Position numbers and translations under genes: made by a program. Shown here piece by piece: positions 15 to 39,948 of a DNA stretch of 64,000 bases. The notes under the pieces were generated by a model that had not been told where the DNA came from, did no database searches, and was given only the letters and a program-made list of their open reading frames with translations. The stretch lies in assembly GCA_963844965.1 (NCBI GenBank), contig CAWJQC010000004.1, forward strand, positions 96,001 to 160,000, in the 5' to 3' direction. Source of the DNA: an uncultured bacterium (GTDB lineage: Bacteria > Patescibacteriota > Minisyncoccia > UBA6257 > 2-01-FULL-56-20). Position 1 is the stretch's first letter. Each line of letters opens with the position of its first letter.

Positions 15-1913
15 ATGATCTCGGAACTGCCATACGAACTCACGTTTTCGCAAAAGAAATCATTGTGGGAAATCATCCAGGACCTCGCCAAAAAACAGCC
101 GATGAACCGCCTGCTCCAGGGCGACGTGGGCTCCGGCAAGACGGTTGTCGCGGCGCTCGCCGCGGTAATTACCGCGGAAAACGGGCTGCAGACCGCGTTT
201 ATGGCGCCAACCGAGGTTCTCGCGAGACAGCATTTTGAAACATTGAAAAAATTATTCGCCGGAATTCCCTCGATCCATCAACCCGTAGTTGGGCTTCTCA
301 CGTCAAGCGAAGCAAAAATCCTCTACGCGACAGACCTTGAATCAAAAATCAAAAAACCGGAGTTGCAGGAAAAAATAAAAAACGGCGAGGTAAAAATAGC
401 CATCGGCACGCACGCTTTGATACAAAAAGACGTGGCGTTCGGCAATCTTGCCTTTATCATCATTGACGAACAGCATAGATTCGGCGTCTCACAACGAGCT
501 GCGCTCGTTCGCGGACAGACGCAGAATGATAATACGCGGACAGACGCTGAACAACTACTATACGAAAAAACGACGTTTGAGATAAGAAAAAGTCTGTTTG
601 AGGTGAGAAAACAACTGGGCCTTGGTCATAAAGAAGTGGTGTATCAGAAAGCATTGGAGGAGGAGTTCAAGAAATCCGGTGTAATATTTGAGAAAGAAAA
701 GAAAATTCCTGTCGTTTATAACAAGAAAAAGATTGGCGTTTATCAACCGGATTTTGTCATAGATAATGAAGTAATTTTGGAACTTAAGGCTCTTCCCTTT
801 ATCGGCGGCATCGAAAAAAAACAGCTGTGGAATTATTTGAGGGGTTCGGATTACAAACTCGCGCTTATGGCAAACTTTGGACCGGAAAGATTATCCATAG
901 AGCGGGTAGTATACGATATTGCGCGGAGTCGGCGGCTGTCAGCGTCCGGTCAGCAACTGTCCGCGCCTATCCCCCACCTCCTCTCAATGTCCGCCACGCC
1001 AATCCCACGCACGCTCATGCTCACCGTCTTCGGCGATTTGGATATATCGCTCATCACCGAACTTCCCGCCGGCAGAAAAAATATCGTAACAAAAATAATC
1101 CCCCCACGGGGCAGGAGCGAAGCCTATGAATTCATCCGCGGCGAAGTGAGGGCCAGCCGGCAGGTTTTTGTCATCTGCCCCCGCATTGACAAACCGCAGA
1201 CAGGCGCAGACCACACGCAGACAAACGCAGACAAGACACAGACAGACGCAGACAATTTTCAGCGGCTGTCTGCGTCAAGTCAGCGACTGTCCGCGTTAAG
1301 TCCACGTAAGTCCGCGTTAGTGTGGGAAGTAAGATCCGTGAAAGAAGAATTTGAAAAATTATCCAAGAAAATTTTTCCGGATTTGCGCGTCGCCATGCTC
1401 CACGGCCAGCTCAAGCCAAAAGAAAAAGCGGGTATCATGAAGGACTTCCGCAACTACAAAATAGATATTCTCGTTTCAACTTCCGTCGTGGAAGTTGGCG
1501 TGGACGTGCCGAACGCAACAATAATGATGATTGAAGGCGCCGATCGCTTCGGGCTGGCTCAGATCTACCAATTCCGCGGACGCGTGGGGCGCGGCGAACA
1601 CCAATCCTATTGCTTCCTGTTCACGGATTCGTCCGCCAAAACTACGCGCGAGCGGCTGCAGGCCGTCCTTGAAGCCAAGAACGGCTTTGAGCTCGCCGAG
1701 AAGGACCTGAAGATCCGCGGTCCCGGCGAATTCCTCGGCACGGCGCAGACCGGCTTTCCCGACACGGCGATGAGCGGCCTCATGAACCCGGAGCTCGTGA
1801 AAGCAAGCCGCGAAGCGGCGGCAAAAATCGTCCAAAAAGATCCGCTTTTCAAAAATTATCCGCTCCTGAAAACCAAATTAAACGAGTTCCGGAAGGAAAT
1901 CCACTTGGAGTAG
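15..1913 (+). CDS. recG: RecG-like ATP-dependent DNA helicase, helicase core only (N-terminal wedge domain lies upstream of the window); carries three in-frame insertions
   Basis: Walker A GDVGSGKT, IIDEQHRFGV (DEQH), SATPIPRTL, QFRGRVGRG motifs. About 150 extra aa between motifs II and III. Confidence 0.85.
   Translation: MISELPYELTFSQKKSLWEIIQDLAKKQPMNRLLQGDVGSGKTVVAALAAVITAENGLQTAFMAPTEVLARQHFETLKKLFAGIPSIHQPVVGLLTSSEAKILYATDLESKIKKPELQEKIKNGEVKIAIGTHALIQKDVAFGNLAFIIIDEQHRFGVSQRAALVRGQTQNDNTRTDAEQLLYEKTTFEIRKSLFEVRKQLGLGHKEVVYQKALEEEFKKSGVIFEKEKKIPVVYNKKKIGVYQPDFVIDNEVILELKALPFIGGIEKKQLWNYLRGSDYKLALMANFGPERLSIERVVYDIARSRRLSASGQQLSAPIPHLLSMSATPIPRTLMLTVFGDLDISLITELPAGRKNIVTKIIPPRGRSEAYEFIRGEVRASRQVFVICPRIDKPQTGADHTQTNADKTQTDADNFQRLSASSQRLSALSPRKSALVWEVRSVKEEFEKLSKKIFPDLRVAMLHGQLKPKEKAGIMKDFRNYKIDILVSTSVVEVGVDVPNATIMMIEGADRFGLAQIYQFRGRVGRGEHQSYCFLFTDSSAKTTRERLQAVLEAKNGFELAEKDLKIRGPGEFLGTAQTGFPDTAMSGLMNPELVKASREAAAKIVQKDPLFKNYPLLKTKLNEFRKEIHLE
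505..555. repeat. GCGGACAGACGC-type palindromic oligo-repeat, in frame in recG (left flank of GxxExxY insert)
   Basis: gcggacagacgcag...cgcggacagacgctg; same motif family recurs at 926, 1196, 15287, 24724 and 24919. Confidence 0.6.
575..880 (+). other. GxxExxY / PD-(D/E)XK-like (PDDEXK_3) domain inserted in frame inside recG
   Basis: LGLGHKEVVYQKAL...ILELKAL...LANFG matches the GxxExxY family signature. Sits between helicase motifs II and III and is bracketed by oligo-repeats at 505-555 and 926-967. Confidence 0.6.
926..967. repeat. oligo-repeat (inverted orientation: ggctgtc...gtccgcg), right flank of GxxExxY insert in recG
   Basis: gagtcggcggctgtcagcgtccggtcagcaactgtccgcgcc. Confidence 0.55.
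1196..1320. repeat. compound GCAGAC/GTCTGC palindromic repeat block, in frame in recG (encodes TQTNADKTQTDADNFQRLSASSQRLSALSPRKSAL)
   Basis: gcagacaaacgcagacaagacacagacagacgcagac followed by inverted copies gctgtctgcgtc, gactgtccgcg, gtaagtccgcg. Confidence 0.6.
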
Positions 1914-3139: not shown

Positions 3140-4625
3140 CGTAGCCGCCGGAGTTGGTGGCTAATCCATAAACTCCTACGCCGTTACCTGCCGCTGACTG
3201 TCCGGCAACCCCTACCCAGTAAGAAGCGCCGACCTGTCCGCCGAGAATCCCATTCGTTGTGGCGTTGCTATTATTTCCCGTTACCGAGCCGACCCATGAT
3301 GAATTGACGGCGCTCGTGAAACTGCCTACGCCAGCAACAACCAACGGATATGCCGGCGTCGTCGTCCCGATGCCGACGTTGCCGTTCGTGATGGAGAAAT
3401 ATGGACCACCCCCCATCCCAGTGCCAAGCGCCAAATTGAGGCCATAAGATTGTGACGTCAAATCAGCGTATGTAAATGCTCCGTTGCTGGTGGTGAACTT
3501 TATCCAATCTACGTTTGACCCGTTTGTATTGTCTAGCCGTAAGGTAGACGTACTTCCACTCTGAATATCAAGTTTTGCGACCGGCGCCGTGTTCCCGATG
3601 CCGACGTTGCCGTTGTTATTTATAAACAAGGCGGGTGACGCGCCGGATGAGTCAGAACCCTGAGTCAAAAAGGCCATTGGAGAACCGTTACTGCCGATCC
3701 GGGCCCAGTTCGCAACTGCTGCCGGTCCAAGCTGTAGCAAGGCATCGGTACCGTTAGATGTCAAGTCAAACTTGGCGAATTTTGACCCGTTCACGACATG
3801 CAACGTCGTTGCCGGCGACGCCGTCCCGATGCCGACGTTGCCGCCATATGCAAGCGTCATTATTTGGGAGTACCAACTGCTGGGGTTCTGATACCCAATC
3901 GTCAAGACCGAATTATCTGACGCTGGTGCAAAAACATACCCATTATTACTGCCAGCCATATCGCGGAGCTTGAAGGCTCCAAAGACATCAAGTGTATTTT
4001 GTGGTGACGGCGTCCCGATGCCGACCGAGCCCGAGAAATACCCGCCGCCGTAGACGGAGAGGGCCTGCGGCAAGTTGCTGGCGGAGGATGTGGTAACGCC
4101 CAGAGCGGAAGAAACAAACACACTGTGGGGGAACCCGTAGGGAACGCCGGAATCGGCCTCTAGAGAATTGAACACCGCGGGCGTGACATAGCCGGCGTTG
4201 ACGGTCCCGTTAAAATTGCCGTGGATCGTGCCGTTCACGTCAAGCTGGTAGCCAGGCGACGCCGTCCCGATGCCGACAGAACCGTCATTGCGCACGACAA
4301 GTATGGGCGACGAATTCGGATAAAGGATCTTCAATGTGTAATTCGCGGCATCAGCGGACGAAGAAGCAACGATGAGGAGTTTGGTTTCCGGCAGAGGCGT
4401 GGGCGTACCAACGCCCAGATTCCCAGCCGCATTAGTGCTTACCGCTCCCGAACCGAAACCGGGGGTGGGAGGAGGAGAGGCAAACGCGTAGTAGGTAGTA
4501 GGTAGTAGGTAGTAGGTAGTAGCGAGAATGACGAAAAACAAAACGTGCGGCGCAAAACTCGGACGCACACCGTAAAACTTGCGGCGGAGCTTTTGCTGTT
4601 TTTGGAACAAATCTGCGTCCATCAT
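2973..4625 (-). CDS. tail-fibre-like surface protein 1 (N-terminal part; paralog of 8555-11680)
   Basis: N-terminus about 95% identical to gene 8555-11680. KQQKLRRKF plus hydrophobic anchor, TTYYLLPTTYY, repeated NGNVGIGT(A/T)SP motifs. Block 3346-3850 is near-identical to 9464-9960. Confidence 0.6.
   Translation of the reverse strand: MMDADLFQKQQKLRRKFYGVRPSFAPHVLFFVILATTYYLLPTTYYAFASPPPTPGFGSGAVSTNAAGNLGVGTPTPLPETKLLIVASSSADAANYTLKILYPNSSPILVVRNDGSVGIGTASPGYQLDVNGTIHGNFNGTVNAGYVTPAVFNSLEADSGVPYGFPHSVFVSSALGVTTSSASNLPQALSVYGGGYFSGSVGIGTPSPQNTLDVFGAFKLRDMAGSNNGYVFAPASDNSVLTIGYQNPSSWYSQIMTLAYGGNVGIGTASPATTLHVVNGSKFAKFDLTSNGTDALLQLGPAAVANWARIGSNGSPMAFLTQGSDSSGASPALFINNNGNVGIGNTAPVAKLDIQSGSTSTLRLDNTNGSNVDWIKFTTSNGAFTYADLTSQSYGLNLALGTGMGGGPYFSITNGNVGIGTTTPAYPLVVAGVGSFTSAVNSSWVGSVTGNNSNATTNGILGGQVGASYWVGVAGQSAAGNGVGVYGLATNSGGYGGYFTNSGGGYALYVNGYRKRHSILHLRGELHHGLAERRRHLGIWRNRSRGGGIW
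4488..4521. repeat. (GGTAGTA)n heptamer array inside the signal-peptide region of surface protein 1
   Basis: gtaggtagtaggtagtaggtagtaggtagtag encodes TTYYLLPTTYY. Confidence 0.8.
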
Positions 4626-4633
4626 AATAATTT

Positions 4634-4658
4634 ACTACCTACTACCTACTACCTACCG
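4634..4658. repeat. (TACTACC)n heptamer array in the 5' leader of surface protein 1
   Basis: tactacctactacctactacctacc immediately 5' of ATG at 4625. Confidence 0.8.
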
Positions 4659-6822: not shown

Positions 6823-7101
6823 AGTGAAATAATACCACAACCCTTTAGGCGGTCAAGTGAAATTGGTAGCCAAAATCGCCCTGCCACACTAAAACCCCTT
6901 TAAATTCTTCCAGCAAGCAAACTGCCCGCGCTTTTCCGCGCGGGCTTTTTTTAAATCCCCGCTGAATACCCAGCCGAGACGTGGCGGAGACGAAACAGTG
7001 AGATATCTTTCTTTCCTCGCTTCGCAAGAAATCTTGCCGTTCCTCCGCGAGCCAATATCTACGGCCCCCGGCTGGAGGGATGAAATGAAATGGACGCTCA
7101 A

Positions 7102-7296
7102 CTATTTCTGTTTAATCTCTCTAATACCGAGGTCCCGGCAGATTTTCTTTGCCAAAAATTCATTGATTTCGCTATGGCGGGGCACCGTAGACGAACGTCT
7201 GACTTTGGGGTTAAAAAAGACGCTGTGCTTGGCGCCTTCCCGAACAAAAACACACCCCTCATGCTCAATGTGGCAAATTAAAACAACTCGCTTCAT
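7102..7296 (-). CDS. hicA: HicA-family toxin, second pair
   Basis: 64 aa, HSEINEFLAKKICRDLGI, YcfA/HicA-like. Confidence 0.65.
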   Translation of the reverse strand: MKRVVLICHIEHEGCVFVREGAKHSVFFNPKVRRSSTVPRHSEINEFLAKKICRDLGIREIKQK

Positions 7297-8554: not shown

Positions 8555-11500
8555 TCATTTCAGAAGAGCGTCAACTTTTTCTTGGAGCGCGGCGTTCTGC
8601 GCCTGAAGAGCGCTGATCTCTTGTTGCTGCTCCTTGATGGATTCTATCATCGGCGCGATAAGCCCAGTATAATCCAGACCAAGGGTTCCGCTCGCGTCAG
8701 TTTCCACCAACTGCGGGAAAACCGTCTGTACATTCTGCGCGGTTAAACCGAGCTGCTCTCCACTGCCCATCAGTTTTGTATCTTTCCATTCAAAGGAAAC
8801 CGGCGTCAGTAACTCAAGCTCCGCAAGCGAACCCGACAGTGGAACTATATTCTTCTTCAAACGCTCGTCGGAGCTATTTATCCACTGCCCAGCATTGTTT
8901 GTATACTCGCCGTGGGCTCCCTGAAAGTCATACGTACTGCCGGAACCATAGACGCCGATTGCAGCAGTTGAAAACACCCCATACCCTGCGGGATTACCGA
9001 AGTATCCAGCGGAACCGTTCGCGCCCGCGGTATCCGAATATCCTTCCACCCCAACCCCAGTACCAGCGTTGTAGCCATAGACGGCGGGAAGACCATTACC
9101 AGTACCGTAGCCATAGACCCCATACCCAGTCGCACCAGCAGTGCCATAGACACCATACATAGAGCCGGTGCCATAAATCCCTGCCCCAGCTTGCCCGGCG
9201 CCACCGACGCTTAATGTTGACGCCGGTGCCGTCGTCCCGATGCCGACGTTGCCGTTCGTGATGGAGAAATATGGACCACCCCCCATCCCAGTGCCAAGCG
9301 CCAAATTGAGGCCATAAGATTGTGACGTCAAATCAGCGTATGTAAATGCTCCGTTGCTGGTGGTGAACTTTATCCAATCTACGTTTGACCCGTTTGTTTT
9401 GTCTAGCCGTAAGGTAGACGTACTTCCACTCTGAATATCAAGTTTTGCGACCGGCGCCGTGTTCCCGATGCCGACGTTGCCGTTCGTGATGGAGAAATAT
9501 GGACCACCCCCCATCCCAGTGCCAAGCGCCAAATTGAGGCCATAAGATTGTGACGTCAAATCAGCGTATGTAAATGCTCCGTTGCTGGTGGTGAACTTTA
9601 TCCAATCTACGTTTGACCCGTTTGTATTGTCTAGCCGTAAGGTAGACGTACTTCCACTCTGAATATCAAGTTTTGCGACCGGCGCCGTGTTCCCGATGCC
9701 GACGTTGCCGTTGTTATTTATAAACAAGGCGGGTGACGCGCCGGATGAGTCAGAACCCTGAGTCAAAAAGGCCATTGGAGAACCGTTACTGCCGATCCGG
9801 GCCCAGTTCGCAACTGCTGCCGGTCCAAGCTGTAGCAAGGCATCGGTACCGTTAGATGTCAAGTCAAACTTGGCGAATTTTGACCCGTTCACGACATGCA
9901 ACGTCGTTGCCGGCGACGCCGTCCCGATGCCGACGTTGCCGGAACCTAAAATTGTCACGAGATCCGTTTTCGAAGAAGCGCCCGTTTTTTCACTAAACTG
10001 GAAAGCGGTGGTGGGATTGTTATAAACATTATAAAAATCAACTTCTGCATTTCCTCCCGTATAATTCCAACCGACGGCCAGACCACCAAGGCCATCACTC
10101 ACCGGTAAAGATTGCGTGTTATATGAAGTTTTCAGGAACCCACCCTCAACATCGAGCTTGTAACCTGGTGCCGCCGTCCCGATGCCGACCGAGCCCGTGA
10201 AATATCCGCCGCCGTAGACGGAAAGCGCCTGCGGACCTACGGCACTGCCCGAAGTGGCAACCGCCAACGAAGAGGAAACGACGACGCTGGCCGGGAAAAG
10301 ATAATTGCCCGTGCTGACAACGTTTGAACCGAAATACCCGGCCGCCACGTTGCTGGCGTTCACGGTGCCACCCGAAGAAGCGCAGTCGGAACCGGTGCCA
10401 GAAACAACGCCCGCAGCGCTTACGTGCAAACACTGGATAGAACCGCTGATTCCAGAAACAGTAAGGGTGTTGGCACTTGCGCCACTGCTGAAAGTTTGAA
10501 GCGCGGTCCAGGTGTTCGCATGTCCAAGATTCAATGCGGCGGACACGGCGCCCGCGGTTGGAGATATCGTTAGAGTTCCGACGCCGCTGTCGCTGACCGA
10601 GGTTACGCTGCCGCCTGCCGCAGACCAAGAAAGCGTGCCAGCGCCGTTGTTCGTGAGCACAGTACTTGCACCGCCTTGCGCGGCCGGCCAGGAATAAGTG
10701 ATACTGTTGATTTTCGCGATGTTGCCGTTATTGTCAACCTGGAATTGACTGCTCGCGCCGACGCTAAAAAGCGACGCTGGCCCCGTCGTCCCGATGCCGA
10801 CGTTGCCGCCCGCAGTTATCCTCATTCTCTCAGCAGCTCCAGCTGAAGTGTCAACCCTAAATATAAGACCATTCGTCGCAGCGCTCGCCTTGACATCTAT
10901 AAACCCTCCCCCAGAAGAATCACTACTGAAAAGTCTCATGCCGTTAACACCGACGCTCGTATCACCTCCAAAGAATAGGTTGCCGTTGACGTTGCCTGCT
11001 GCCATAGGCAAAAGCATATTTGACGTAAGCTGAAGCTGTTGAGTTGGGTTCGCCGTCCCGATGCCGACGTTGCCGCTGAAATACCCGCCGCCGTAGACGG
11101 AGAGGGCCTGCGGCAGATTGCTCGCGGTTGTCGTTGTGATTCCAAGACCGGAAGTGATAAACACGCTGTGGGGAAACCCGTAGGGAACGCCGGAATCGAG
11201 TTGGAGAGAGTTAAACACCCCGGGCGAGATGTTGCCGGCGCTTACGAGACCGCTCACGCTGCCATAAATGGACATGCCGCTGGCGAGATTCACACTGCCG
11301 GCATTAGTAAGATTTGAAGTGCCGATACCGACGGTGCCATCGTTGCGCACGACGAGAAGCGGAACAGCAGAGCCGGGCTGGACAACCTGCAGAGCGAAAT
11401 TTGAGCTGTCGGTTGACGAAGCCACAATCAGAAGCCTCACGTTGGCGGAGGGTGTTGACGTTCCAATGCCCAGATTGCCCGCGGCGTTAACGCTTATCGC

Positions 11501-11680
11501 TCCCGAACCGTAACCGGGAGTGGGAGGAGGAGAAGCAAACGCATAGTAGGTAGTAGGTAGTAGGTAGTAGGTAGTAGCGAGAATGACGAAAAACAAAACG
11601 CGCGGCGCAAAACTCGGACACGCACCGTAAAACTTGCGGCGGAGCTTTTGCTGTTTTTGGAACAAACCTGCGTCCATCAT
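8555..11680 (-). CDS. tail-fibre-like surface protein 2 with peptidase S74-type C-terminal intramolecular chaperone domain
   Basis: C-terminus has SSDERLKKNI...LTAQNVQTVFPQLV...coiled coil; repeated NGNVGIGT motifs; N-terminal anchor plus TTYYLLPTTYY. Confidence 0.7.
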   Translation of the reverse strand: MMDAGLFQKQQKLRRKFYGACPSFAPRVLFFVILATTYYLLPTTYYAFASPPPTPGYGSGAISVNAAGNLGIGTSTPSANVRLLIVASSTDSSNFALQVVQPGSAVPLLVVRNDGTVGIGTSNLTNAGSVNLASGMSIYGSVSGLVSAGNISPGVFNSLQLDSGVPYGFPHSVFITSGLGITTTTASNLPQALSVYGGGYFSGNVGIGTANPTQQLQLTSNMLLPMAAGNVNGNLFFGGDTSVGVNGMRLFSSDSSGGGFIDVKASAATNGLIFRVDTSAGAAERMRITAGGNVGIGTTGPASLFSVGASSQFQVDNNGNIAKINSITYSWPAAQGGASTVLTNNGAGTLSWSAAGGSVTSVSDSGVGTLTISPTAGAVSAALNLGHANTWTALQTFSSGASANTLTVSGISGSIQCLHVSAAGVVSGTGSDCASSGGTVNASNVAAGYFGSNVVSTGNYLFPASVVVSSSLAVATSGSAVGPQALSVYGGGYFTGSVGIGTAAPGYKLDVEGGFLKTSYNTQSLPVSDGLGGLAVGWNYTGGNAEVDFYNVYNNPTTAFQFSEKTGASSKTDLVTILGSGNVGIGTASPATTLHVVNGSKFAKFDLTSNGTDALLQLGPAAVANWARIGSNGSPMAFLTQGSDSSGASPALFINNNGNVGIGNTAPVAKLDIQSGSTSTLRLDNTNGSNVDWIKFTTSNGAFTYADLTSQSYGLNLALGTGMGGGPYFSITNGNVGIGNTAPVAKLDIQSGSTSTLRLDKTNGSNVDWIKFTTSNGAFTYADLTSQSYGLNLALGTGMGGGPYFSITNGNVGIGTTAPASTLSVGGAGQAGAGIYGTGSMYGVYGTAGATGYGVYGYGTGNGLPAVYGYNAGTGVGVEGYSDTAGANGSAGYFGNPAGYGVFSTAAIGVYGSGSTYDFQGAHGEYTNNAGQWINSSDERLKKNIVPLSGSLAELELLTPVSFEWKDTKLMGSGEQLGLTAQNVQTVFPQLVETDASGTLGLDYTGLIAPMIESIKEQQQEISALQAQNAALQEKVDALLK
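9236..9691. repeat. 228-bp (76-aa) tandem duplication inside surface protein 2 (single copy in paralog at ~3361-3590)
   Basis: Two copies differ by 1 nt (N/K); unit NGNVGIGNTAPVAKLDIQSG...GGGPYFSIT. Confidence 0.85.
11544..11577. repeat. (GGTAGTA)n heptamer array in signal-peptide region of surface protein 2
   Basis: gtagtaggtagtaggtagtaggtagtaggtagtag. Confidence 0.8.
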
Positions 11681-11687
11681 AATAATT

Positions 11688-11747
11688 TACTATCTACTAC
11701 TTACTACCTACCACCTACTACCTACTACCTACTACTTACTGCTTCGC
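11688..11747. repeat. degenerate TACTACC-type heptamer array (7 units) filling the gap between the stop of 11736-12200 and the ATG of surface protein 2
   Basis: tactatctactacttactacctaccacctactacctactacctactacttac. Confidence 0.8.
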
Positions 11748-12933: not shown

Positions 12934-13797
12934 TTAGGTACAAGAAACGCTTGAAGTCGCAATCATGCCGCTGCCCGTAATATAAAGCCGATAGCAGGAA
13001 GCACCATTCTTCAGGATTATGCCGGACGCGCTATTGCTTATATATATATCTCCCCCGGCGACCTGAAGCGCCTGCGTCGGCTGCGAACCCATGTTCACGC
13101 CGGCGTAGCCGGTAAAATAAACATTATTTGAGCCGGGTAAGCCGAAATTGAGCACGCCGTTGACGTTACTCCAGTATTGCGTGGCAGTTCCAAGCGGCAG
13201 GCCGGTGGTTGACGATGGAAACACACCGGTATCAAAAGTCGCCGCATTCACGCGCGCAATCGCCGTCTGCAGTGCCTCCGAAAATTGCTGTGTCGCGTTC
13301 TGCGTATTGTTGGCCACAACGAATGAAACGCTCACGGAGTCGTGCCCCGGCGCGTTGGAACGCTTTATAAAAGTGAGGGAAGTAACGTTCACCCTCGGAG
13401 TTGTAAGCGGCTGCGGCGTGCCGGTAGCGGTCTGTTGCAAATATACCGTGCCAGGCGTACCGGAAGACAGATAAATGTAGGTCGGGTCCAACGAACTGGC
13501 TGCCATCCGCAACTTTAGGGTGCTCGTAGCGATATCCTGGTTTAACTCAACAAGACTTGAGCGTTCTATGTAATATTGGATCTGCTGCAACAGGAACTGG
13601 CTTTCTTGGTTCACCTCGGCGGCAGCCGACTGGCGGGATTGGATACGTATGACGGCGACCATCATCGTTATAAACGCAACCATGACTATTGCGAAGATCG
13701 CCGAAAAAGCAAGAAGTTCAATGATGGTGAAACCCTTCTTTGAACGGTAGGTGTAGTAAGTGGTAGGTGGTAAGTGGTAGGTGGTAAATTTCTTCAT
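12934..13797 (-). CDS. type IV pilin-like protein (class III signal peptide)
   Basis: ...KKG/FTIIELLAFSAIFAIVMVAFI prepilin cleavage/methylation motif. Unusually long leader MKKFTTYHLPPTTYYTYRS is encoded by degenerate heptamer repeats. Confidence 0.7.
   Translation of the reverse strand: MKKFTTYHLPPTTYYTYRSKKGFTIIELLAFSAIFAIVMVAFITMMVAVIRIQSRQSAAAEVNQESQFLLQQIQYYIERSSLVELNQDIATSTLKLRMAASSLDPTYIYLSSGTPGTVYLQQTATGTPQPLTTPRVNVTSLTFIKRSNAPGHDSVSVSFVVANNTQNATQQFSEALQTAIARVNAATFDTGVFPSSTTGLPLGTATQYWSNVNGVLNFGLPGSNNVYFTGYAGVNMGSQPTQALQVAGGDIYISNSASGIILKNGASCYRLYITGSGMIATSSVSCT
13746..13787. repeat. degenerate GGTAGGT/GGTAAGT heptamer array inside the pilin leader peptide
   Basis: ggtaggtgtagtaagtggtaggtggtaagtggtaggtggtaa. 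Confidence 0.65.
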
Positions 13798-14205: not shown

Positions 14206-14240
14206 CATACTACCTACCACCTACTACATACTACTTACCG
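14206..14240. repeat. degenerate TACTACC heptamer array in 5' leader of 13807-14187
   Basis: ctactatatcatactacctaccacctactacatactacttacc. Confidence 0.6.
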
Positions 14241-14331: not shown

Positions 14332-16005
14332 CTACACGGGAAAACTCCCGTTTTCCCGACCCCTTTCCCTGATTTTGGGCGTCACCCAAAATCCCAACCG
14401 CCATTTCCCTCCCAACATCAATCTGGTCTGCGCTTCAAGACCTGGCAACGCGCCAAAGATTATGAGCGTCAGCGGTATAAAAATCCACTGAAGAAAATAA
14501 ATGAGGTAGTGCCGCGCGCGGAACCAGCGCGGGCGCGGAGGCAAGAGCAGAATACCTAAAATCGCCGAACTTGCGATGCCTATCATGGAAAGCGAGACGA
14601 TGAAACGCGCGACTTGCGGCAGACTGTAAGAAAGGAGCGTGTAGTTGAAACGCCTGCCGCCGATGAACACCGGCAGCCACCCCAACGCGAAGATCATGAG
14701 GGAATTCGTCGCCCAAGAATGGAAACCTTCAAGGATATTGAAGGACCAATACCATTTTTTTCTTTTCGGAATTTCCGGGTCGCGCCGGAAGCCGTCCAGA
14801 AGATACGGAATATTTTCCGCGCCCCATCCCCAGCGCCGCTGTTGCCTGTAGATATTTTTCATCGTGGCCCAGAAAGTCGGCGCCGCGGGCGCGTCCATGG
14901 AAACCGGGTAAAGAAGGGGCTCAACGCGAAAATCGCCGTGATAGTGGAGATAGCACTGCCAAAAAATCCTTGAGTCCTCGGAGACAACGTCCTTATGCCA
15001 AAAACCGACGTCAATCAGCGTTTTCAGGGGAATTGACTGCGAAGAAAAAGAGGTCAGACGTTCCGGGCGCGACTGCTGCATCATCTGCCAGAAGGTTGAC
15101 GAAAAAGAAACGACGCGCGCCAAAGCCGGCGTCTCGTAAACGTTGTTCATGAAAAGCGGCACCGGCTGGTAAATCGCACGCTCGCGATCCTCCGAAGACA
15201 AAAAAACGTAGGCAAGCCGCCCGAAATATTCCGGGAAAACCTGCGTGTCAATGTCAAAAACCGACACTAAGATATTTTCATATCTTAACGCGGACTTACG
15301 CGGACTTAACGCGGAACTACGCGGAAAAACTTCTGCATTAGTCTGCACTTGCCCGCCTAAATTTCCTTCGGAAACTTTGGCGGGTAAATCTGCGTTAGTC
15401 TGCGCATTGACCAATGGGTCAATTATTAATTCTTTGGCGTGTGCCGCCGCCCACGCCTCATTGGAACCTTTGCCGGGAATTTCACCGGCTAAATTCCGCG
15501 GATGGACAGTGACAAGAAACCTGAAAAATTTATCGGCGAATTCTTTTTTTATTTTTTCGGCGACCGCTCTGGCGTCTTCCCCACCCGCTTCCTCCGTCGC
15601 CAGCACGACCAAAAGCTTATCCAGCGGATAATTCACGCGAACCAAGCTCTCAAAACTTCCGCGAACCACTTCATAGGGCTCTTTGTACATCGGAAGAATA
15701 ATAAGGTGATACACTTCCGACCATGACAATGACTTATGACGATGACCGCTCAAATTATTGTTATCGTTATTGTCATTTGTCATAGTCCGCAATTTTTCCA
15801 GCCAATCCACTCTCAGGTTTTTCCTCATCGCCGAAAAAGTTGAGCGCAAGTGCAGAGAGAGATAAATCGTTTTCAGGAGCCAGTAGATGTCAAAGAGTAT
15901 GATAAAAACCGCGACGGCGGCGGGCAGCTTCCACGACAGAAAGACCATCAAAAATAAAGTGAGCCAGGCAAGACCTCCGGGAAGAATTTCAAAAAAACGG
16001 TGCAT
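14332..16005 (-). CDS. family-2 processive beta-glycosyltransferase (cellulose/chitin synthase-like) with in-frame oligo-repeat insertion
   Basis: N-terminal TM helices; QQRRWGWG (QxxRW) motif; extra segment QTNADLPAKVSEGNLGGQVQTNAEVFPRSSALSPRKSAL. Confidence 0.65.
   Translation of the reverse strand: MHRFFEILPGGLAWLTLFLMVFLSWKLPAAVAVFIILFDIYWLLKTIYLSLHLRSTFSAMRKNLRVDWLEKLRTMTNDNNDNNNLSGHRHKSLSWSEVYHLIILPMYKEPYEVVRGSFESLVRVNYPLDKLLVVLATEEAGGEDARAVAEKIKKEFADKFFRFLVTVHPRNLAGEIPGKGSNEAWAAAHAKELIIDPLVNAQTNADLPAKVSEGNLGGQVQTNAEVFPRSSALSPRKSALRYENILVSVFDIDTQVFPEYFGRLAYVFLSSEDRERAIYQPVPLFMNNVYETPALARVVSFSSTFWQMMQQSRPERLTSFSSQSIPLKTLIDVGFWHKDVVSEDSRIFWQCYLHYHGDFRVEPLLYPVSMDAPAAPTFWATMKNIYRQQRRWGWGAENIPYLLDGFRRDPEIPKRKKWYWSFNILEGFHSWATNSLMIFALGWLPVFIGGRRFNYTLLSYSLPQVARFIVSLSMIGIASSAILGILLLPPRPRWFRARHYLIYFLQWIFIPLTLIIFGALPGLEAQTRLMLGGKWRLGFWVTPKIRERGRENGSFPV
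15287..15412. repeat. GCGGAC/GTCTGC oligo-repeat block in frame within the GT2 gene
   Basis: aacgcggacttacgcggacttaacgcggaactacgcgg...ctgcattagtctgcac...ctgcgttagtctgcgc. Confidence 0.6.
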
Positions 16006-20126: not shown

Positions 20127-20273
20127 TGATTATCCTGGGAATTGAAACGAGCTGCGAGGGCTACGATTTTCCTTTTCGAGGGACGGCTCGCTTCGCTCCA
20201 GCGGCGAAGCGGCGCTGTATCTCAATGCAGCGGTCGCCTTCGGCGAACCAAGCCCGCCGCATTTCCGATAACC
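20127..20273 (+). pseudogene. remnant 5' fragment of a tsaD/tsaB-like gene (MIILGIETSCE...)
   Basis: First 11 codons mimic the Kae1/TsaD N-terminus, then unrelated sequence; just upstream of the intact tsaD. Confidence 0.3.
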
Positions 20274-20317
20274 CCTCAAAAAAGAAAATCTCCGCTTAAG
20301 AAAAATTAACTAATTCA

Positions 20318-21361
20318 ATGAAGATATTAGCTATAGAAACCAGCTGTGATGAAACCGGGCTTGCCATTGTTGAGGCAAGCGGTGGTTTGCGCTCACCGCG
20401 GTTCAAGGTTTTGAAAAACCTGGTTGCTTCGCAAATCAAAATCCATCGTCCTTTTGGCGGCGTCGTTCCCAATCTCGCCAAGCGAGAACATCTGAAAAAT
20501 CTGCCGATCCTTTACAAGAAAATTGAAAATTCTAAGTTGAAAATTGAAAATTGTGACCTGGTCGTGGTAACTGTCGGTCCCGGACTGGAACCAGCCCTTT
20601 GGACCGGGATAGAATTTGCGAAAAACTTACCTGCCACCTGCCACCCACCACCCACCAAACTTGTCGGCACCAGTCACTTGGAGGGACATCTCTACAGTTT
20701 TTTGCTGCCCACGAAATCCACGAGCGGCTACGCTTCGGCACTCCTGCCGAAAGCCGTTTTTCCAGCTATAGCACTCATCGTCTCGGGCGGACACACTATA
20801 CTCTTATACATGGAATCGTTCTCCAAGTGGAAGCGGCTCGGCGAAACGCGCGATGACGCCGCGGGCGAGGCGTTTGACAAGGTCGCGCGCCTTCTTGAGC
20901 TTCCTTACCCCGGCGGGCCGGAGATAGAAAAGCTCGCAGCGAGAGGAAATCCATTCGCCATCACGTTCCCGCGCCCGATGCTTGACCAGAAAAATTACGA
21001 CTTCAGTTTCTCGGGGCTCAAAACTTCCGTCCTATACTACCTGAGAGACAATCCTCGCGCGAACAAAGCCGACGTTGCCGCGGGATTTGAGCAGGCGGTC
21101 GTTGATGTTCTCGTCGCGAAAGCCAAACGTGCCGCGCAGGAATACGGCGCCGAATCCATACTCCTCTCCGGCGGCGTCGCAGCGAACAAGCACTTGCGCA
21201 GGGCGCTCGCGCGCGCGGCTGAACTCATCGGCGCCAATTTCTTCGTTCCCGATTTCAAATACAACGCGGACAACGCCGTGATGATTGCGGCCGCCGGATA
21301 TATGGCGTATTTACGTAAGAAAAAATATAAACTTGAAGCACGGGGAAATTTAGAGATATAA
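20318..21361 (+). CDS. tsaD: tRNA N6-adenosine threonylcarbamoyltransferase TsaD
   Basis: MKILAIETSCDETGLAIV..., Kae1/Gcp fold; small low-complexity insert LPATCHPPPT. Confidence 0.85.
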   Translation: MKILAIETSCDETGLAIVEASGGLRSPRFKVLKNLVASQIKIHRPFGGVVPNLAKREHLKNLPILYKKIENSKLKIENCDLVVVTVGPGLEPALWTGIEFAKNLPATCHPPPTKLVGTSHLEGHLYSFLLPTKSTSGYASALLPKAVFPAIALIVSGGHTILLYMESFSKWKRLGETRDDAAGEAFDKVARLLELPYPGGPEIEKLAARGNPFAITFPRPMLDQKNYDFSFSGLKTSVLYYLRDNPRANKADVAAGFEQAVVDVLVAKAKRAAQEYGAESILLSGGVAANKHLRRALARAAELIGANFFVPDFKYNADNAVMIAAAGYMAYLRKKKYKLEARGNLEI

Positions 21362-22306: not shown

Positions 22307-25104
22307 ATGCCCGAAGAATTTCCTACGCGCTACGACATAAAGGAAGTTGAAACGAAAATCTACGACCTATGGGAAAAGTCTGGGTTTTTCAATCCCGATG
22401 TTTGCGTTGAAAAAGGCGCGACGAAACCGGACGCCGAACCTTTTTCCATCGTCCTGCCGCCGCCGAACGTAACCGGCACCTTGCACATCGGCCACGCCTT
22501 TGAGGACGCGATCCAAGACACCGTTGTCCGCTACGAGCGCATGCGCGGCAAGCGGACGCTCTGGGTTCCCGGGACCGACCACGCCGCCATCGCCACGCAG
22601 GCGAAAGTGGAGGAACTTCTGCGCAAGGAAGGGAAAACGAAATACGACCTCGGCCGGGAGGAATTCCTGCGGCGCGTGAACGAGTTCGCCAAAAATTCTC
22701 ATGACATCATAATCCGCCAGATAAAACGGCTCGGCGCTTCGCTTGATTGGGGCCGCGAGGCATATACGCTTGATGAAAAACGAAATCTCGCCGTCCGCAC
22801 CGCCTTTAAAAAAATGTACGACCTCGGCCTCATTTACCGCGGCGATCGTATCGTGAACTGGGACCCGAAGCTACAGACCACCGTCTCCGACGACGAGGTG
22901 GAATGGATAGACGAAACGACGCCTTTCTACTATCTGAAATATGGGCCGTTCGTCATCGGCACGGCAAGACCGGAAACGAAGTTTGGCGACAAATACGTCG
23001 TCATGCATCCGGACGACGAACGCTATAAAAAATATAAACACGGCGAAAAGATAGAACTTGAATGGATAAACGGGTCGGTCACGGCAACAATTATCAAGGA
23101 TAAGGTCATTGACGTGAATTTCGGCACGGGCGTGATGACAATCACACCATGGCACGACATGACGGACTTTGACATCGCGGAAAGGCATCGCCTGGATAGG
23201 GAGCAGATAATCGACCTGCGCGGCAAACTGCTGCCCATCGCCGGCGAATTCGCCGGAACGCCTATCGCCAAGGCCCGGCCGCTCATTATTGAAAAACTAA
23301 GAACAAAGGGTCTCGTGGAAAAGATTGACGAACATTACGCCCATCGCGTCGCCACGAACAGCCGCGGCGGCGGCCTCATCGAACCGCAGATCCTCAAACA
23401 ATGGTTCGTCAAGGTAAACTCCAAGTTCCAAATCCCAATTTCCAACCTAAAAGGGATAAAAAGCGGCCAAGAGGTGACGCTCAAGGAACTTATGAAAAAA
23501 GTCGTGGAGTCGGGGCAAATAAAAATCATACCCGGACAGTTTGAAAAAATTTACTATCATTGGATAGACAACCTGCGCGACTGGTGCATCTCGCGCCAGC
23601 TTTGGTTCGGGCACAGAATTCCGGTGTGGTATTGCCTCGCCTGCGGCGAGCCGCAAGTTGAACCGAAAATAAAATCGCGATGGTTCCTGGTGCGGCACGG
23701 AGAAACAGACTGGATCAAAGAGGGGCGGCACATGGGACATAAAGAGGTTCCCATGAATGAAACCGGCAAGCAGCAAGCGATGGTAGCCGGCGAACGGCTC
23801 GCAAACGAAAAAATTGATCTGATAATTTCTTCCACCACCATGCGCTGCAAAGAAACCGCCGAAATTATCGCGAAAAAACTGGGTGTCAAAATTATTTTTG
23901 ACGAACGTCTGCGCGAGCGCGGCAGTGGCGAATGGGAAGGACTGCTGCATGCGGAAATCAGGGAAAAATACAAACCTCTGGAGCAAAAATATGGACCGAG
24001 GAGTGGAACAAGCGCGCGCGCTATGAATTCAAACCGCCGGGAGGAGAAAATTGGCTGGAACTTGAAAAGCGCGTAATTCAATCGTTCAAAGAGCACAAAC
24101 TTCGATACGCCGACAAAAATATCGCGATTGTCACCCACGCCGGTCCGATCAGGATCCTGGAAAAAAATCTTAAAAACAAATCATTTGAAGAAGTGGTGGG
24201 ATTAATACCCGAGAATGCCGAGATTGCTAAGCTTTCAATCGCAACTGCTTCCTGTAAAAAATGTGGCAGTGATACTTACGAGCAGGATCCCGATACTCTG
24301 GATACCTGGTTCTCCTCCGCTATGTGGACGTTCTCAACTCTCGGCTGGCCTGAAAAAACCTCCGACCTCAGAACCTACCATCCAACCTCTTTGATGGCGC
24401 CGGGGTATGAAATCCTTTTCTTCTGGGTGGCGCGGATGATACTCATGAGCGGCTGTCTTTTGGGAGAAATCCCCTTCCGCACGGTTTATCTCCACGGCAT
24501 TGTGCGCGACAAGCAGGGCAAGAAATTCAGCAAATCCAGCGGTCACGCGCTTGACCCCCTGGAACTAGCCGACAAATACGGAGCGGACGCCCTGCGCATG
24601 GCTTTAATTGCCGGAGCGGCGCCGGGAAACGACGTGCAATTTGACGAGAATAGGGTCAAGGGCTACAGGAATTTTTCAACCAAGATATGGAACGTAGCGC
24701 GGTTTGTTTTACTAAACAAACCGCCGCAGACAGACGCTGACAAGACGCGGACAGCCGCGGACATTGCTGGCCGACCAGAGATAAAGGAGTTTGAGGCAAT
24801 TAAATCGGAAATAACGAAACATCTTGATGAATACGAACTGCATCTCGCAAGCGAAAAGATTTACCACTACTTCTGGCACACTTTCGCCGACAAAATAATT
24901 GAACAGGAAAAAGCCAACCTGCGGACAGCCGCCGACAAGACGCAGACAGACGCAGACATTGCGAGACGGGCAGAATCCTATGCCCTACTGGGATACATTC
25001 TCGTCGGTTCGCTTAAACTACTCCACCCTTTCATGCCGTTCGTAACAGAAGAGATTTATCAAAAATTTGAACTAAATAAGCTTCTCTTGACCGAAAAATG
25101 GTAA
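22307..25104 (+). CDS. valS: valyl-tRNA synthetase with inserted histidine-phosphatase domain; apparent frameshift at ~23985-24000 splits it into two ORFs
   Basis: HIGH (TLHIGHAF) and KMSKS-like (KFSKSSGH) motifs, DTWFSSAMWTFSTLGWPE; ORFs 22307-24076 and 23932-25104 overlap out of frame at the A5 run caaaaatatgg. Confidence 0.8.
23672..24250 (+). other. phosphoglycerate-mutase-family histidine phosphatase domain inserted between the CLAC and CKKC zinc-knuckle cysteines of ValRS
   Basis: RWFLVRHGETD (RHG catalytic His), ...RERGSGEWEG..., FKPPGGENW, VTHAGPIR motifs. Confidence 0.6.
24724..24780. repeat. GCAGACAGACGC oligo-repeat in frame in valS (QTDADKTRTAADIAGRP)
   Basis: ccgcagacagacgctgacaagacgcggacagccgcggac. 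Confidence 0.6.
24919..24965. repeat. GCGGACAGCC/GCAGACAGACGCAGAC oligo-repeat in frame in valS (LRTAADKTQTDADIARR)
   Basis: ctgcggacagccgccgacaagacgcagacagacgcagacattgcg. Confidence 0.6.
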
Positions 25105-28084: not shown

Positions 28085-29686
28085 CTAAAATTTTCGGGCT
28101 GTAGTATAGCGGCAGTACGCACCCTTGGGGTGGGTGTAGACCGGGTTCGACTCCCGGCAGCCCGACATAACGGAACTTGCATCAACTTTTTCAAAATCAA
28201 CGCGCTCGCTTCGCTCGCTGTCTTTATGCACGAGGGGCAAATGGAGAAGCAAATCCGTAACTACTTTCCATTCGTCTTTCCAATCCCAAAAAATTTCCCT
28301 GTCCCGCAGGCGGCGGTTCGTTCCGATTTTCCCCGCAAAGGATTTTATGGCGTCGAATTCTTCGGACGAAGCCAGTTTTGCCGCGTGAAACGCGGATATA
28401 ATCCATTCCCGCAATGGTTCGATCCAATAGTTTCCCCTCCGCCCGCAATCATCATTCTGCTTGGACAAGGAAACTTTAGTTTTGATAAGCTCGTCCTTTT
28501 TGGCAAGATAGATTTCTTTTTCAATTGAGCCGTCCAAAAAGGCGTTCACGAGCTTGTCTAATTTCTGCTCGGTTTCCTTGAGTTGGGTTTCGAGATTGCG
28601 GGCGGAATTCTCCGAAGATTGGATGCCTTCTTTTTCCCACGCTTCCACTTGAACCAGCATTTTCTCTTTCCAATCTTCGGGGATGGCGACCTCCGAGATT
28701 TTCTCTTTGAGCTGTTGCACGAGTAAATCTTCGCGCAGATAGCTTTGTGAACACGGGCCAAGCCGTTTCGTACAGCGATAATACTTGTAGAGGCCGCCGT
28801 TCCCTTTCGCGTATTGGGCGGTGATGGCCGCGCCGCACTCGCCGCAGGTGAGCAATCCGGTGAACGGGAAATAATGACGCTTCTTGGAGTGGCGCGGCTT
28901 GGCTTTGTTCCTCAAAACCTCCTGCACTTTCTTGAAGGTCGCCTCGGGAACTATCGGCAGGAAATTGCCGACATAGCTCTCGCCGTTGTGTTTTATCACT
29001 CCGAGATAGGCGGAGTTCGTGAGCATCCGTTGGAGCGTGGCCTTCGGCATGGGATTTCCCGTACCGCTCACGATGCCGAAAAACTGGAAGCGGGCGGCGA
29101 GCGTCTTTAGGGTGTGCCTCCCTTCGGCGTATTCCTCAAAAACTTTTCTGATGATTCTCGCCCGCACGGGGTCGGGTTCGATGTTCCGCGTCTTGGGATT
29201 GTTGAGGTAACCGAAGGGGGCTTTGGTCGGCCACTCGCCGCGCCGCAATTTCTGCCGGATGCCGCGCTTCACGTTCTCGGAAAGGTTATCGCTGTAATAC
29301 TTGGACTGGCCGAAGGCGACCTGCAACATGAAAAGTCCCTGCGGGGTCGGCTCAAACCAGAACGTCGGGAACTTCAGCGAGGCAATCTTCTGGGTATCGA
29401 TGAGGTAGATGATTTGGCCGCCGTCTATGGAGTTGCGAGCCAATCGGTCGGGATGCCACGCCAATATGCCGACGGGTTCTTTGCTCTCGTGAATTTTCTT
29501 GATAAGGTCGCCGAACACTTCCCTGCCCGGACTTTTCGCGCTCTTGCTCTCGATGAAGGTCTCGATAATCTTTATATGTTCCCGTTTAGCGAACTCGGCA
29601 AGCTCCGCGAGTTGGGCTTCAATGCTCATCACCTGCCGTTCCTCGTCCTCGGTGGACTTGCGGGCATAGAGGAAATATGGGGTCAT
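28085..29686 (-). CDS. large serine recombinase (integrase/invertase type); 3' end reads through the tRNA-Pro 3' end
   Basis: N-terminal YARKSTEDEERQVMSIEAQ resolvase catalytic domain, recombinase domain, zinc ribbon CGECG...YYRC, coiled coil. Last ~27 codons are the reverse complement of tRNA-Pro. Alternative C-terminus ...SQLLNAVRTYFIENPRD is preserved at 30050-30260. Confidence 0.8.
   Translation of the reverse strand: MTPYFLYARKSTEDEERQVMSIEAQLAELAEFAKREHIKIIETFIESKSAKSPGREVFGDLIKKIHESKEPVGILAWHPDRLARNSIDGGQIIYLIDTQKIASLKFPTFWFEPTPQGLFMLQVAFGQSKYYSDNLSENVKRGIRQKLRRGEWPTKAPFGYLNNPKTRNIEPDPVRARIIRKVFEEYAEGRHTLKTLAARFQFFGIVSGTGNPMPKATLQRMLTNSAYLGVIKHNGESYVGNFLPIVPEATFKKVQEVLRNKAKPRHSKKRHYFPFTGLLTCGECGAAITAQYAKGNGGLYKYYRCTKRLGPCSQSYLREDLLVQQLKEKISEVAIPEDWKEKMLVQVEAWEKEGIQSSENSARNLETQLKETEQKLDKLVNAFLDGSIEKEIYLAKKDELIKTKVSLSKQNDDCGRRGNYWIEPLREWIISAFHAAKLASSEEFDAIKSFAGKIGTNRRLRDREIFWDWKDEWKVVTDLLLHLPLVHKDSERSERVDFEKVDASSVMSGCRESNPVYTHPKGAYCRYTTARKF
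28095..28165 (+). tRNA. tRNA-Pro (anticodon GGG)
   Basis: Acceptor CGGGCUG/CAGCCCG, anticodon loop uuGGGgu, T-loop GGGTTCGACTCCC. Confidence 0.7.
28163..28321. repeat. IR-A left arm (recombinase 3' coding end), inverted copy at 30050-30208
   Basis: ~159 bp identical in inverted orientation; inner boundary at the tRNA-Pro 3' end. Confidence 0.85.

Positions 29687-37058: not shown

Positions 37059-37127
<69 letters not shown>

Positions 37128-39872: not shown

Positions 39873-39948
<76 letters not shown>

Follow-up and report, generated by a model that had tools for sequence, protein, structure and literature searches.

A GxxExxY nuclease domain in frame within RecG of a Patescibacteria genome: a probable selfish cassette

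The stretch of DNA analyzed here, called the window, comprises 64,000 nucleotides from an uncultured bacterium of the Patescibacteriota (assembly GCA_963844965.1, contig CAWJQC010000004.1, positions 96,001 to 160,000) and opens with a recG gene. A complete GxxExxY nuclease domain lies in frame between helicase motifs II and III of this gene and is bracketed by inverted arrays of a short repeat. The same arrangement was found in the same loop of many other RecG proteins and also at other sites in other proteins. We consider that positions 510–965 are probably a selfish, translated, non-splicing nuclease cassette, which stays in frame with its host and moves between alleles by recombination, occasionally reaching new sites.

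The nuclease domain and its flanking arrays

The recG gene is cut by the 5′ end of the window, and frame 3 is open from 3 to 1913 on the + strand, which gives the 3′ 636 codons of the gene. The translation of this open reading frame (ORF) matches the Pfam families DEAD, Helicase_C and RecG_dom3_C and the NCBIfam RecG models (E 1e-172). Truncation of the window copy and its inserts alone account for scores below the cut-offs of the NCBIfam RecG equivalog models. A full-length RecG of 893 aa (P0001), which is 100% identical to the window copy, is encoded on a 216-kb contig and has the RecG_wedge, DEAD, Helicase_C and RecG_dom3_C domains that identify a RecG helicase. By RecG protein, the closest named relatives are Candidatus Liptonbacteria and Paceibacterota. 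Motif II (DEQHRFGV, 465–488, + strand) was read from the sequence and is invariant in 51 homologues; motif III (SATPIPRT, 990–1013, + strand) was read from the sequence and from the homologue alignment. The spacing between the two motifs is 167 codons in the window, against 19–52 residues, mostly 19–31, in 23 insert-free homologues. This agrees with a sequence-only reading of this DNA, which had given about 25 residues as normal for RecG. That reading had placed the insert at 505–967, which is right within a few bases; we set the bounds at 510–965 (456 nt, 152 codons). The junctions read VR/GQTQ and LSA/PIPH (the slash marks the insert boundary), and both are variable among homologues.

The nuclease core comprises 123 codons at 552–920 on the + strand. 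It has no start codon of its own and no in-frame Met, and its G+C content is 35–39%, compared with 50–60% in the neighboring recG. Profile searches matched the insert over practically its full length to Pfam PF13366 PDDEXK_3 (E 2.5e-29, profile positions 3–116 of 117, 102 bits with a cut-off of 22) and to NCBIfam TIGR04256 GxxExxY (E 3.9e-31, positions 2–116 of 116, 108 bits with a cut-off of 35), which bears out the earlier identification of a complete GxxExxY domain in frame between the motifs. The signature GHKEVVY is at 624–644, the catalytic D at 750–752, and the ExK motif (ELK) at 780–788. The G, E, Y, D, E and K of the core are invariant in alignments of 26 and of 51 homologues. The ratio of nonsynonymous to synonymous substitution rates (dN/dS) is 0.05 in the core and 0.03 in the host for the one pair that gave an estimate, nearly all other pairs being saturated at synonymous sites. 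Where dS is saturated, the amino-acid identity of the core is still approximately 60%. Judged from these sequence comparisons, the core is under purifying selection. The sole paper naming PDDEXK_3 that we found in the literature lists its function as unknown (PMC3424549).

Structure prediction with AlphaFold2 (AF2) was carried out for the insert alone and for the full RecG. In the model of the insert alone, the core has a predicted local distance difference test score (pLDDT) of >90, and both repeat-encoded linkers have a pLDDT of <50. The predicted fold of the core is the alpha-beta-beta-beta-alpha-beta fold of PD-(D/E)XK nucleases, and the Foldseek matches include Cas4 SSO0001, lambda exonuclease, Hjc and tRNA-splicing endonucleases. 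No close solved structural relative of the core was found by Foldseek, and the resemblance to I-Bth0305I (PDB 3r3p) is weak (rank 38, E 0.37). For the full RecG model, the best match in the Protein Data Bank (PDB) is RecG 1GM5 (E 3e-44, TM 0.69). The core residues 445–560 are confident in this model; the linkers (430–441 and 563–577) and a second insert (654–692) have a pLDDT of <50 and are predicted to be disordered. The model thus predicts that the RecG fold is kept intact, with the nuclease domain held on two disordered linkers.

The linkers are encoded by the terminal arrays, both of which were located by repeat search. The left array (510–551, + strand) consists of four CGC[G/A]GAC units at a spacing of approximately 10–11 nt (CGCGGACAGACGCAGAA ... 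CGCGGACAGACGCTGAA) and is translated as RGQTQNDNTRTDAEQ. The right array (929–965, + strand) holds the left units in reverse-complement form (…GCGGCTGTCAGCG…GTCAGCAACTGTCCGCG) and is translated as RRLSASGQQLSA. The sequence CGCGGACAGACGC occurs on the + strand at 510 and 535, and its complement is found at 932–944 and 953–965. The palindromic repeat copies that had been noticed earlier on both sides of the domain are these inverted arrays. The element thus has terminal inverted repeats, as a cut-and-paste transposon or a MITE (miniature inverted-repeat transposable element) does, and it encodes one protein only, the GxxExxY nuclease, an enzyme that is no known transposase. In the window as a whole, the 13-mer repeat has 14 matches where 2.2 are expected, a number reached in none of 100 shuffles, and there are six arrays of at least three units where 0.06 are expected. 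All the true arrays of the window are within ORFs and in frame. The proposition that the arrays are free of stop codons in all six frames was rejected, as off-frame stop density reaches 0.10 per codon.

The domain shows no sign of being an intein, as had been observed from the sequence: the Pfam profile search gave no intein or Hint match for the window recG, and the C/S/T ... HN-C/S/T junction residues are missing at the ends of the insert. No Rfam model, whether of a group I/II intron or of another structured RNA, matched the element, the only hits being sub-threshold miRNA-hairpin matches on a cargo-less palindrome. Searches with PADLOC and PHROGs gave nothing informative, and there is no second GxxExxY copy in the 64-kb window.

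Recurrence in RecG and in other proteins

The insert is not peculiar to this genome. Among the 120 best RecG homologues, which are 50–67% identical, 96 have the GxxExxY domain between motifs II and III, always in frame. The domain embedded in RecG is widespread among Patescibacteria, and public databases already contain it; named carriers include Candidatus Liptonbacteria, Paceibacterota, Sungiibacteriota and ‘Patescibacteria group’, and several cassette-bearing RecGs are automatically annotated simply as ‘GxxExxY protein’. Together with 50 metagenome loci, at least 146 RecGs have the domain in the II–III loop (at least 96 of them homologues from the first set). In the homologues, peptides such as RGQTQTETRTDAE or RRLTQIDTQINAD lie ahead of the domain and SQRLSASSPRLSAS or NLRESASNLRESAL come after it; translated in the host frame, the repeat gives the former from one strand and the latter from the other. 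In four homologues, a divergent nuclease subtype occupies the same site and has a different repeat unit. The insert-free homologues P0070, P0098 and P0114 retain footprints of the repeat, and P0038 and P0046 have a normal II–III loop and carry the cassette in the wedge region instead. A contig scan with the full RecG returned one cassette, in L001, among the matches listed; it also gave empty sites and the loci L040 and L007 described below. A word-index search with the insert only gave 22 matches on short contigs and missed the RecG copies; one of its proteins (P0121) combines PF13366 with GTP_EFTU.

A metagenome scan with an alignment of the insert only returned 80 loci. In all 80, the core is within a longer open frame or is cut by the end of the contig, and a free-standing core was found in none. 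Every one of about 230 instances examined in total is in frame and open in the host frame. The hosts in the metagenome loci, whose identities were confirmed by Pfam, are RecG at the II–III site (50), the G domain of LepA/EF4 (23, inserted between RMLY and EYILNLIDTPGH), ValRS (2), SecA (2, at different sites), GatB (1), a GT2 glycosyltransferase (1), the RecG wedge (1) and one unidentified fragment. Thus, the cassette is in frame at no fewer than eight host sites besides the RecG II–III loop. One LepA (L124, 805–3291) contains two cargo-less hairpin inserts, and the GatB of L152 (317–2512) contains long arrays. Repeat-only copies appear to outnumber those bearing the nuclease.

An exhaustive HMMER search of 1.84 billion cluster representatives gave 6,887 relatives. 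The top 30 (E ≤ 1e-30, approximately 50–63% identical) are almost all internal to proteins of 225–907 aa. Among the top 150, 59 longer representatives include 44 Pfam families, such as GT1/GT4, GTP_EFTU, RecG, transketolase, GatB, Wzy and RtcB. The sequence-only reading had described the family as otherwise free-standing; this did not hold for the closest relatives (≥50% identity), which are almost all embedded in larger proteins.

Free copies outside RecG do exist. L162 has a free-standing intergenic GxxExxY gene of subtype 2 (6847–7233, − strand) with the units ACGAAT (x4) and ATTCGT (x4). L040, from an Anaerolineales (Chloroflexi) metagenome-assembled genome (MAG), has another free-standing intergenic GxxExxY gene (20167–20532) with TCAGCG (x4) and CGCTGA (x3). 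The inverted arrays are at or beyond the ends of the ORF in both, so the association of nuclease and arrays reaches beyond the in-frame copies and beyond Patescibacteria. The left flank of a locus forms a duplex of −49.7 kcal mol−1 with its own right flank, compared with −30.7 kcal mol−1 for shuffled right flanks (80 loci), and the flank duplexes of further copies have z scores of −3 to −7. The reverse-complement flanks and the arrays around free-standing copies indicate that the arrays are part of the DNA or RNA of the element and not merely selected protein linkers.

Several observations concern the RecG loop itself. A Flavobacteriales MAG (L007, 11219–11713, JACJZB010000003.1) has a RecG whose II–III loop contains a 165-aa insert matching the DUF559 (Vsr-like) endonuclease PF04480 (E 9e-34). 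It is flanked by the small hairpins CCTTCCCAAAGGGAAGG and CCTCCCCTTTAGGGAGG and is a convergent nuclease insertion in another phylum. The host codons CAG CGC GCG GAA (QRAE) just upstream of the insertion resemble the repeat unit CGCGGAA (window 489–512; empty sites L163, L166 and L168) and may be a natural landing site or a microhomology. A Jorgensenbacteria RecG (L002) has a GATGAC/GTCATC mini-hairpin in the II–III loop. The RecG match in a Saccharibacteria MAG (L010, 586–3963) is 3378 nt long, about 1,100 aa, with normal II–III spacing; there must be a large insertion elsewhere in this gene.

Mobility, inheritance and alternative explanations

When 119 RecGs are placed on a tree made from their host portions alone, the insert switches between present and absent at least 14 times. 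Closely related proteins differ at the site. The site is filled in one member of the pair P0012/P0114 (96% protein identity) and holds a different mini-hairpin in the other; in P0005/P0028 (88%), a filled site is paired with a clean empty site; in P0032/P0038 (88%), one protein has the cassette at II–III and the other at the wedge site. Recurrence at the same site in homologous genes, together with empty alleles in close relatives, is the pattern of a homing endonuclease gene.

Nucleotide comparisons of related loci show divergence centered on the site. The recG genes of L161 and L162 have 98–100% nucleotide identity, but only 77–89% over approximately 150 nt on either side of the site, and the unfilled site of L162 holds a different mini-hairpin with the unit AATCGC. 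L164 and L163 are 96–99% identical, but 58–73% over approximately 560 nt upstream, and approximately 60 nt downstream have also diverged; this pair differs at a third, hairpin-only site as well. L107 and L108 are identical past nt 660 and 55–92% identical before it, in a stretch that spans the indel at the wedge site. L086 and L087 have nine differences, six of them inside the element, and all those in the core are synonymous. Mosaics of this kind, centered on the site, would be expected from homing co-conversion or from any recombination that brings the cassette in or takes it out. The mobile-element origin proposed in the sequence-only reading is thus supported by the other hosts, the patchiness among nearly identical alleles, the divergence around the site and the arrays on free-standing copies.

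In the explanation that we favor, the cassette would be a GxxExxY PD-(D/E)XK nuclease gene without a start or a stop codon, lying between inverted arrays in which the unit (A)CGC[G/A/T]GA[C/T] recurs about every helical turn. Its place would be the surface loop that separates RecG motifs II and III, and translation with RecG would give a fusion protein. The arrays would encode two hydrophilic disordered linkers and the nuclease would form a looped-out domain, so that the helicase core could still fold. We propose two reasons for its persistence in essential genes: copies are tolerated only when they are in frame and in permissive loops, and imprecise loss would damage the host gene. Spread would be mainly from allele to allele at one host site, through homologous recombination in which adjoining host sequence moves along. 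This allelic spread would resemble homing: the nuclease, presumably active, would recognize the arrays or the empty site, and the break that it makes probably stimulates the recombination. New host sites would be colonized rarely, and the cargo-less arrays of the window (1188–1316, 15284–15410 and 24725–24958) would be non-autonomous, MITE-like relatives.

Several results weigh against this explanation. The filled and empty junctions, whose flanks have diverged, show no target-site duplication, nor was a defined site of cleavage recognized. In the small sample of four filled/unfilled pairs, two have clear mosaic tracts and two are too diverged to tell, and ordinary recombination spanning the site by chance would look alike. 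Duplexes between flanks of different loci reach −44.6 kcal mol−1, near the −49.7 kcal mol−1 of own pairs, because most loci share units of the CGC[G/A/T]GA[C/T] type; locus-specific covariation of the left and right arrays is thus modest, and strong covariation was rejected. The cores cluster largely by host site. The core tree requires 12 host switches, compared with 27.6 with shuffled labels and a minimum possible of 8, and the correlation between host and insert identity is weak and positive (Spearman 0.27). The clustering and the correlation indicate that long vertical inheritance explains much of the distribution. The DUF559 nuclease at the RecG II–III loop could point to a functional advantage specific to RecG. 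An earlier estimate of full decoupling between host and insert histories (Spearman −0.09) was withdrawn, since the hits had been selected on the combined score of host and insert and the value is probably an artefact. On balance, the picture is of cassettes that stay long at one site, are exchanged between alleles and now and then jump to a new one.

The main rival explanation is domestication, in which an old insertion now serves RecG as an accessory nuclease, for example in cleaving junctions or forks in concert with branch migration, and the repeats are relics. The occupation of the same loop in at least 146 RecGs, the invariant catalytic residues and the dN/dS of 0.05 are consistent with this, as are the fold, which resembles junction nucleases of the Hjc and T7 endonuclease I type, and the restriction of most RecG inserts to one clade; the unrelated DUF559 nuclease at the same loop in Flavobacteriales adds some weight. 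However, cassettes approximately 60% identical are found in LepA, ValRS, SecA, GatB and glycosyltransferases, none of which has an evident need of a nuclease, and core identity within a host site (0.60) is no higher than between host sites (0.59). RecG alleles that are 88–96% identical lack the domain or have it at another RecG site, and the inverted DNA arrays are kept on both sides, also around the free-standing copies. We regard domestication as unlikely, though it is the alternative to be taken most seriously.

A second alternative is a fossil insertion, which landed once in an ancestor and has since been neutral, immobile baggage, with the patchiness due to deletions only. The clustering of cores by host site, the weak positive correlation and the footprints kept in some unfilled alleles (P0070, P0098 and P0114) fit such a history. 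Neutral baggage would not be expected to keep invariant catalytic residues and a dN/dS of 0.05 across lineages that are saturated at synonymous sites. The mini-hairpin of L162 (AATCGC) is not a deletion remnant of its 96%-identical partner, clean empty sites occur in close relatives (P0028), the divergence tracts flank the site, and a close relative has the cassette at the alternative RecG site (P0032 and P0038). A fossil therefore seems quite improbable to us.

A third alternative is removal at the RNA level, by analogy with rRNA intervening sequences, in which the repeat stem is cut in the transcript, for example by RNase III; the insert would then be excised, or the mRNA left in two pieces, and RecG would never contain the domain. 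The arrays 929–965 and 510–551 do pair in the predicted minimum-free-energy fold of 495–980, and the cargo-less element at 1188–1316 is a very stable hairpin (z −8). As a whole, however, the fold of the element is no more stable than that of shuffled sequences (z +0.37), and a stable whole-element RNA structure was rejected; an Rfam family match is also lacking, as noted above. A continuous frame would be unneeded if the insert were removed from the RNA, yet it is maintained in all of the approximately 230 instances; the core appears to be selected at the codon level in the host frame, and it has neither a start codon nor a ribosome-binding site of its own. We know of no bacterial mechanism for religating RNase III products. 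Excision from the transcript is thus very unlikely.

Finally, an assembly chimera, which the sequence-only reading had named as a possible refutation and in which a mis-join would place a free-standing GxxExxY gene inside recG, has nothing in its favor except the drop in G+C in the core and is ruled out, because the same architecture, with the same junctions and frame, recurs in >140 independently assembled contigs (NCBI, JGI, ENA and Logan) and the identical protein is on the 216-kb contig.

Related elements, neighboring features and significance

The element mixes traits of inteins, Rickettsia palindromic elements (RPEs) and repetitive extragenic palindromes (REPs) with their RAYT transposases, and it does not appear to belong to any of them. 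Like inteins with homing endonucleases, the cassette is an in-frame nuclease insertion, apparently selfish, without its own start or stop codon. Its hosts are likewise conserved housekeeping proteins, often ATPases or helicases near their catalytic motifs, and it shares with inteins the recurrence at the same site across distant lineages, the patchiness and, in some allele pairs, flank divergence such as co-conversion could produce. In contrast to inteins, it has no Hint or splicing domain and no junction residues, so that the domain must stay in the mature protein. Its nuclease is a PD-(D/E)XK GxxExxY enzyme by family, instead of LAGLIDADG or HNH, and the cassette, unlike inteins, has inverted DNA repeat arrays at its ends; it lies in surface loops instead of inside active-site motifs.

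Homing endonucleases of the PD-(D/E)XK type are already known, I-Ssp6803I being one. Both I-Ssp6803I and I-Bth0305I resemble the element as small nucleases associated with mobile insertion in an essential gene; unlike it, these free-standing or intron-borne enzymes are expressed from their own ORF in a self-splicing intron or an intergenic region. Members of the GxxExxY family and of a four-helix-bundle family are reported within 23S rRNA intervening sequences. These sequences are also insertions in an essential gene, with a closing stem of inverted repeats and a small ORF of a multi-copy family. They are cut out of the transcript, leaving a fragmented rRNA that is functional, and this is something that a protein-coding host cannot tolerate; the strict conservation of frame argues for read-through translation of the cassette.

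RPEs are said to have been described by Ogata et al. in 2000. In RPEs and other coding palindromes, palindromic repeats are in frame in genes and are translated as extra surface segments, and the cargo-less hairpins here (for example, 1188–1316) behave likewise, a resemblance that is functional only. RPEs have no ORF, whereas the palindrome arms here are arrays of a 7–8-nt unit that can enclose a nuclease domain; RPEs also belong to another taxon, and no similarity to them in sequence was noticed. Other coding palindromes are PARCEL (PMC2996958) and those in Nematomorpha mitochondrial genes (PMC6649704). REPs, also as bacterial interspersed mosaic elements (BIMEs), share with the cassette an enzyme gene flanked by inverted short repeats that are also scattered through the genome without the gene. 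Such an arrangement points to an autonomous element accompanied by non-autonomous copies. The enzymes differ, RAYTs being HUH/Y1 transposases and the one here a PD-(D/E)XK nuclease, and so does the location, REPs being extragenic and the copies here in frame in coding sequence.

Three further members of the repeat family in the window carry no nuclease. The first, identified by repeat search, is in recG itself (1188–1316, + strand) and consists of five forward then five reverse units. It is in frame, encodes KPQTGADHTQTNADKTQTDADNFQRLSASSQRLSALSPRKSAL, and lies between the CPRID strand and the WEV(R/K)S motif. It is a near-perfect hairpin (RNA fold −63.2 kcal mol−1, z −8.0), and homologues have variants at this site. 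The second, found by repeat and ORF analysis like the third, is an insert at 15284–15410 (− strand) in a glycosyltransferase-like ORF (14332–16005, − strand); read on the + strand, it has four forward units and then reverse-type units around a small central hairpin. The third consists of two solo forward arrays, 24725–24763 and 24920–24958 (+ strand), in the anticodon-binding part of ValRS. They are in frame and encode PPQTDADKTRTAADI and LRTAADKTQTDADI.

The ValRS gene (22307–25104, + strand) is split into the overlapping ORFs 22307–24076 and 23932–25104, which could reflect a frameshift, a sequencing error or a pseudogene. A histidine-phosphatase domain (PF00300) lies inside its catalytic domain, at position 260 of the tRNA-synt_1 profile, and the frame changes within it; here too, a housekeeping enzyme has a domain inserted. 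Tandem repeats of 7 nt, perfect or nearly so (GTAGTAG/TACTACC, TAGAAAG and GTAGAAA), cluster at the ends of large Gly/Thr/Asn-rich surface-type ORFs (4488–4522, 4633–4656, 11544–11577, 11688–11740, 13746–13787, 14208–14238, 37060–37092 and 39874–39907). A 1041-aa protein (8555–11680, − strand) has a Peptidase_S74 C-terminus (endosialidase chaperone, tail-fibre-like) and contains a 228-nt tandem duplication at 9223–9712. A large serine recombinase is encoded at 28085–29686 (− strand). The Peptidase_S74 protein and the recombinase may be prophage or mobile-element remnants.

In full-text literature searches, neither GxxExxY/PDDEXK_3 insertions nor coding palindromes were found described for bacteria of the candidate phyla radiation (CPR). 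We tentatively suggest that GxxExxY cassettes could be an undescribed class of selfish element, an ‘intein without splicing’. Its members would place a nuclease on repeat-encoded linkers in essential proteins, recognize their own CGCNGAC-type arrays or the empty site, and home between alleles, with cargo-less hairpins peppering coding sequence.

If our explanation is correct, the cassette represents a third way for selfish DNA to live in essential genes, beside self-splicing introns and inteins: toleration without removal, made possible by a surface loop and built-in disordered linkers. The GxxExxY/PDDEXK_3 family would gain a role that can be tested, and the unit arrays at its flanks would be candidates for its DNA ligands. 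The recurrent insertions and low-complexity segments in CPR housekeeping proteins would be explained, and the systematic mis-annotation of RecG as ‘GxxExxY protein’ is flagged. For protein engineering, the permissive loops in RecG, LepA, SecA, ValRS and GatB and a compact nuclease that tolerates an internal position may be of use. Should they indeed form a class of selfish elements without splicing, GxxExxY cassettes would be a major overlooked source of extra segments and domain insertions in Patescibacteria proteomes, and probably also a source of ‘GxxExxY protein’ mis-annotations across bacteria.

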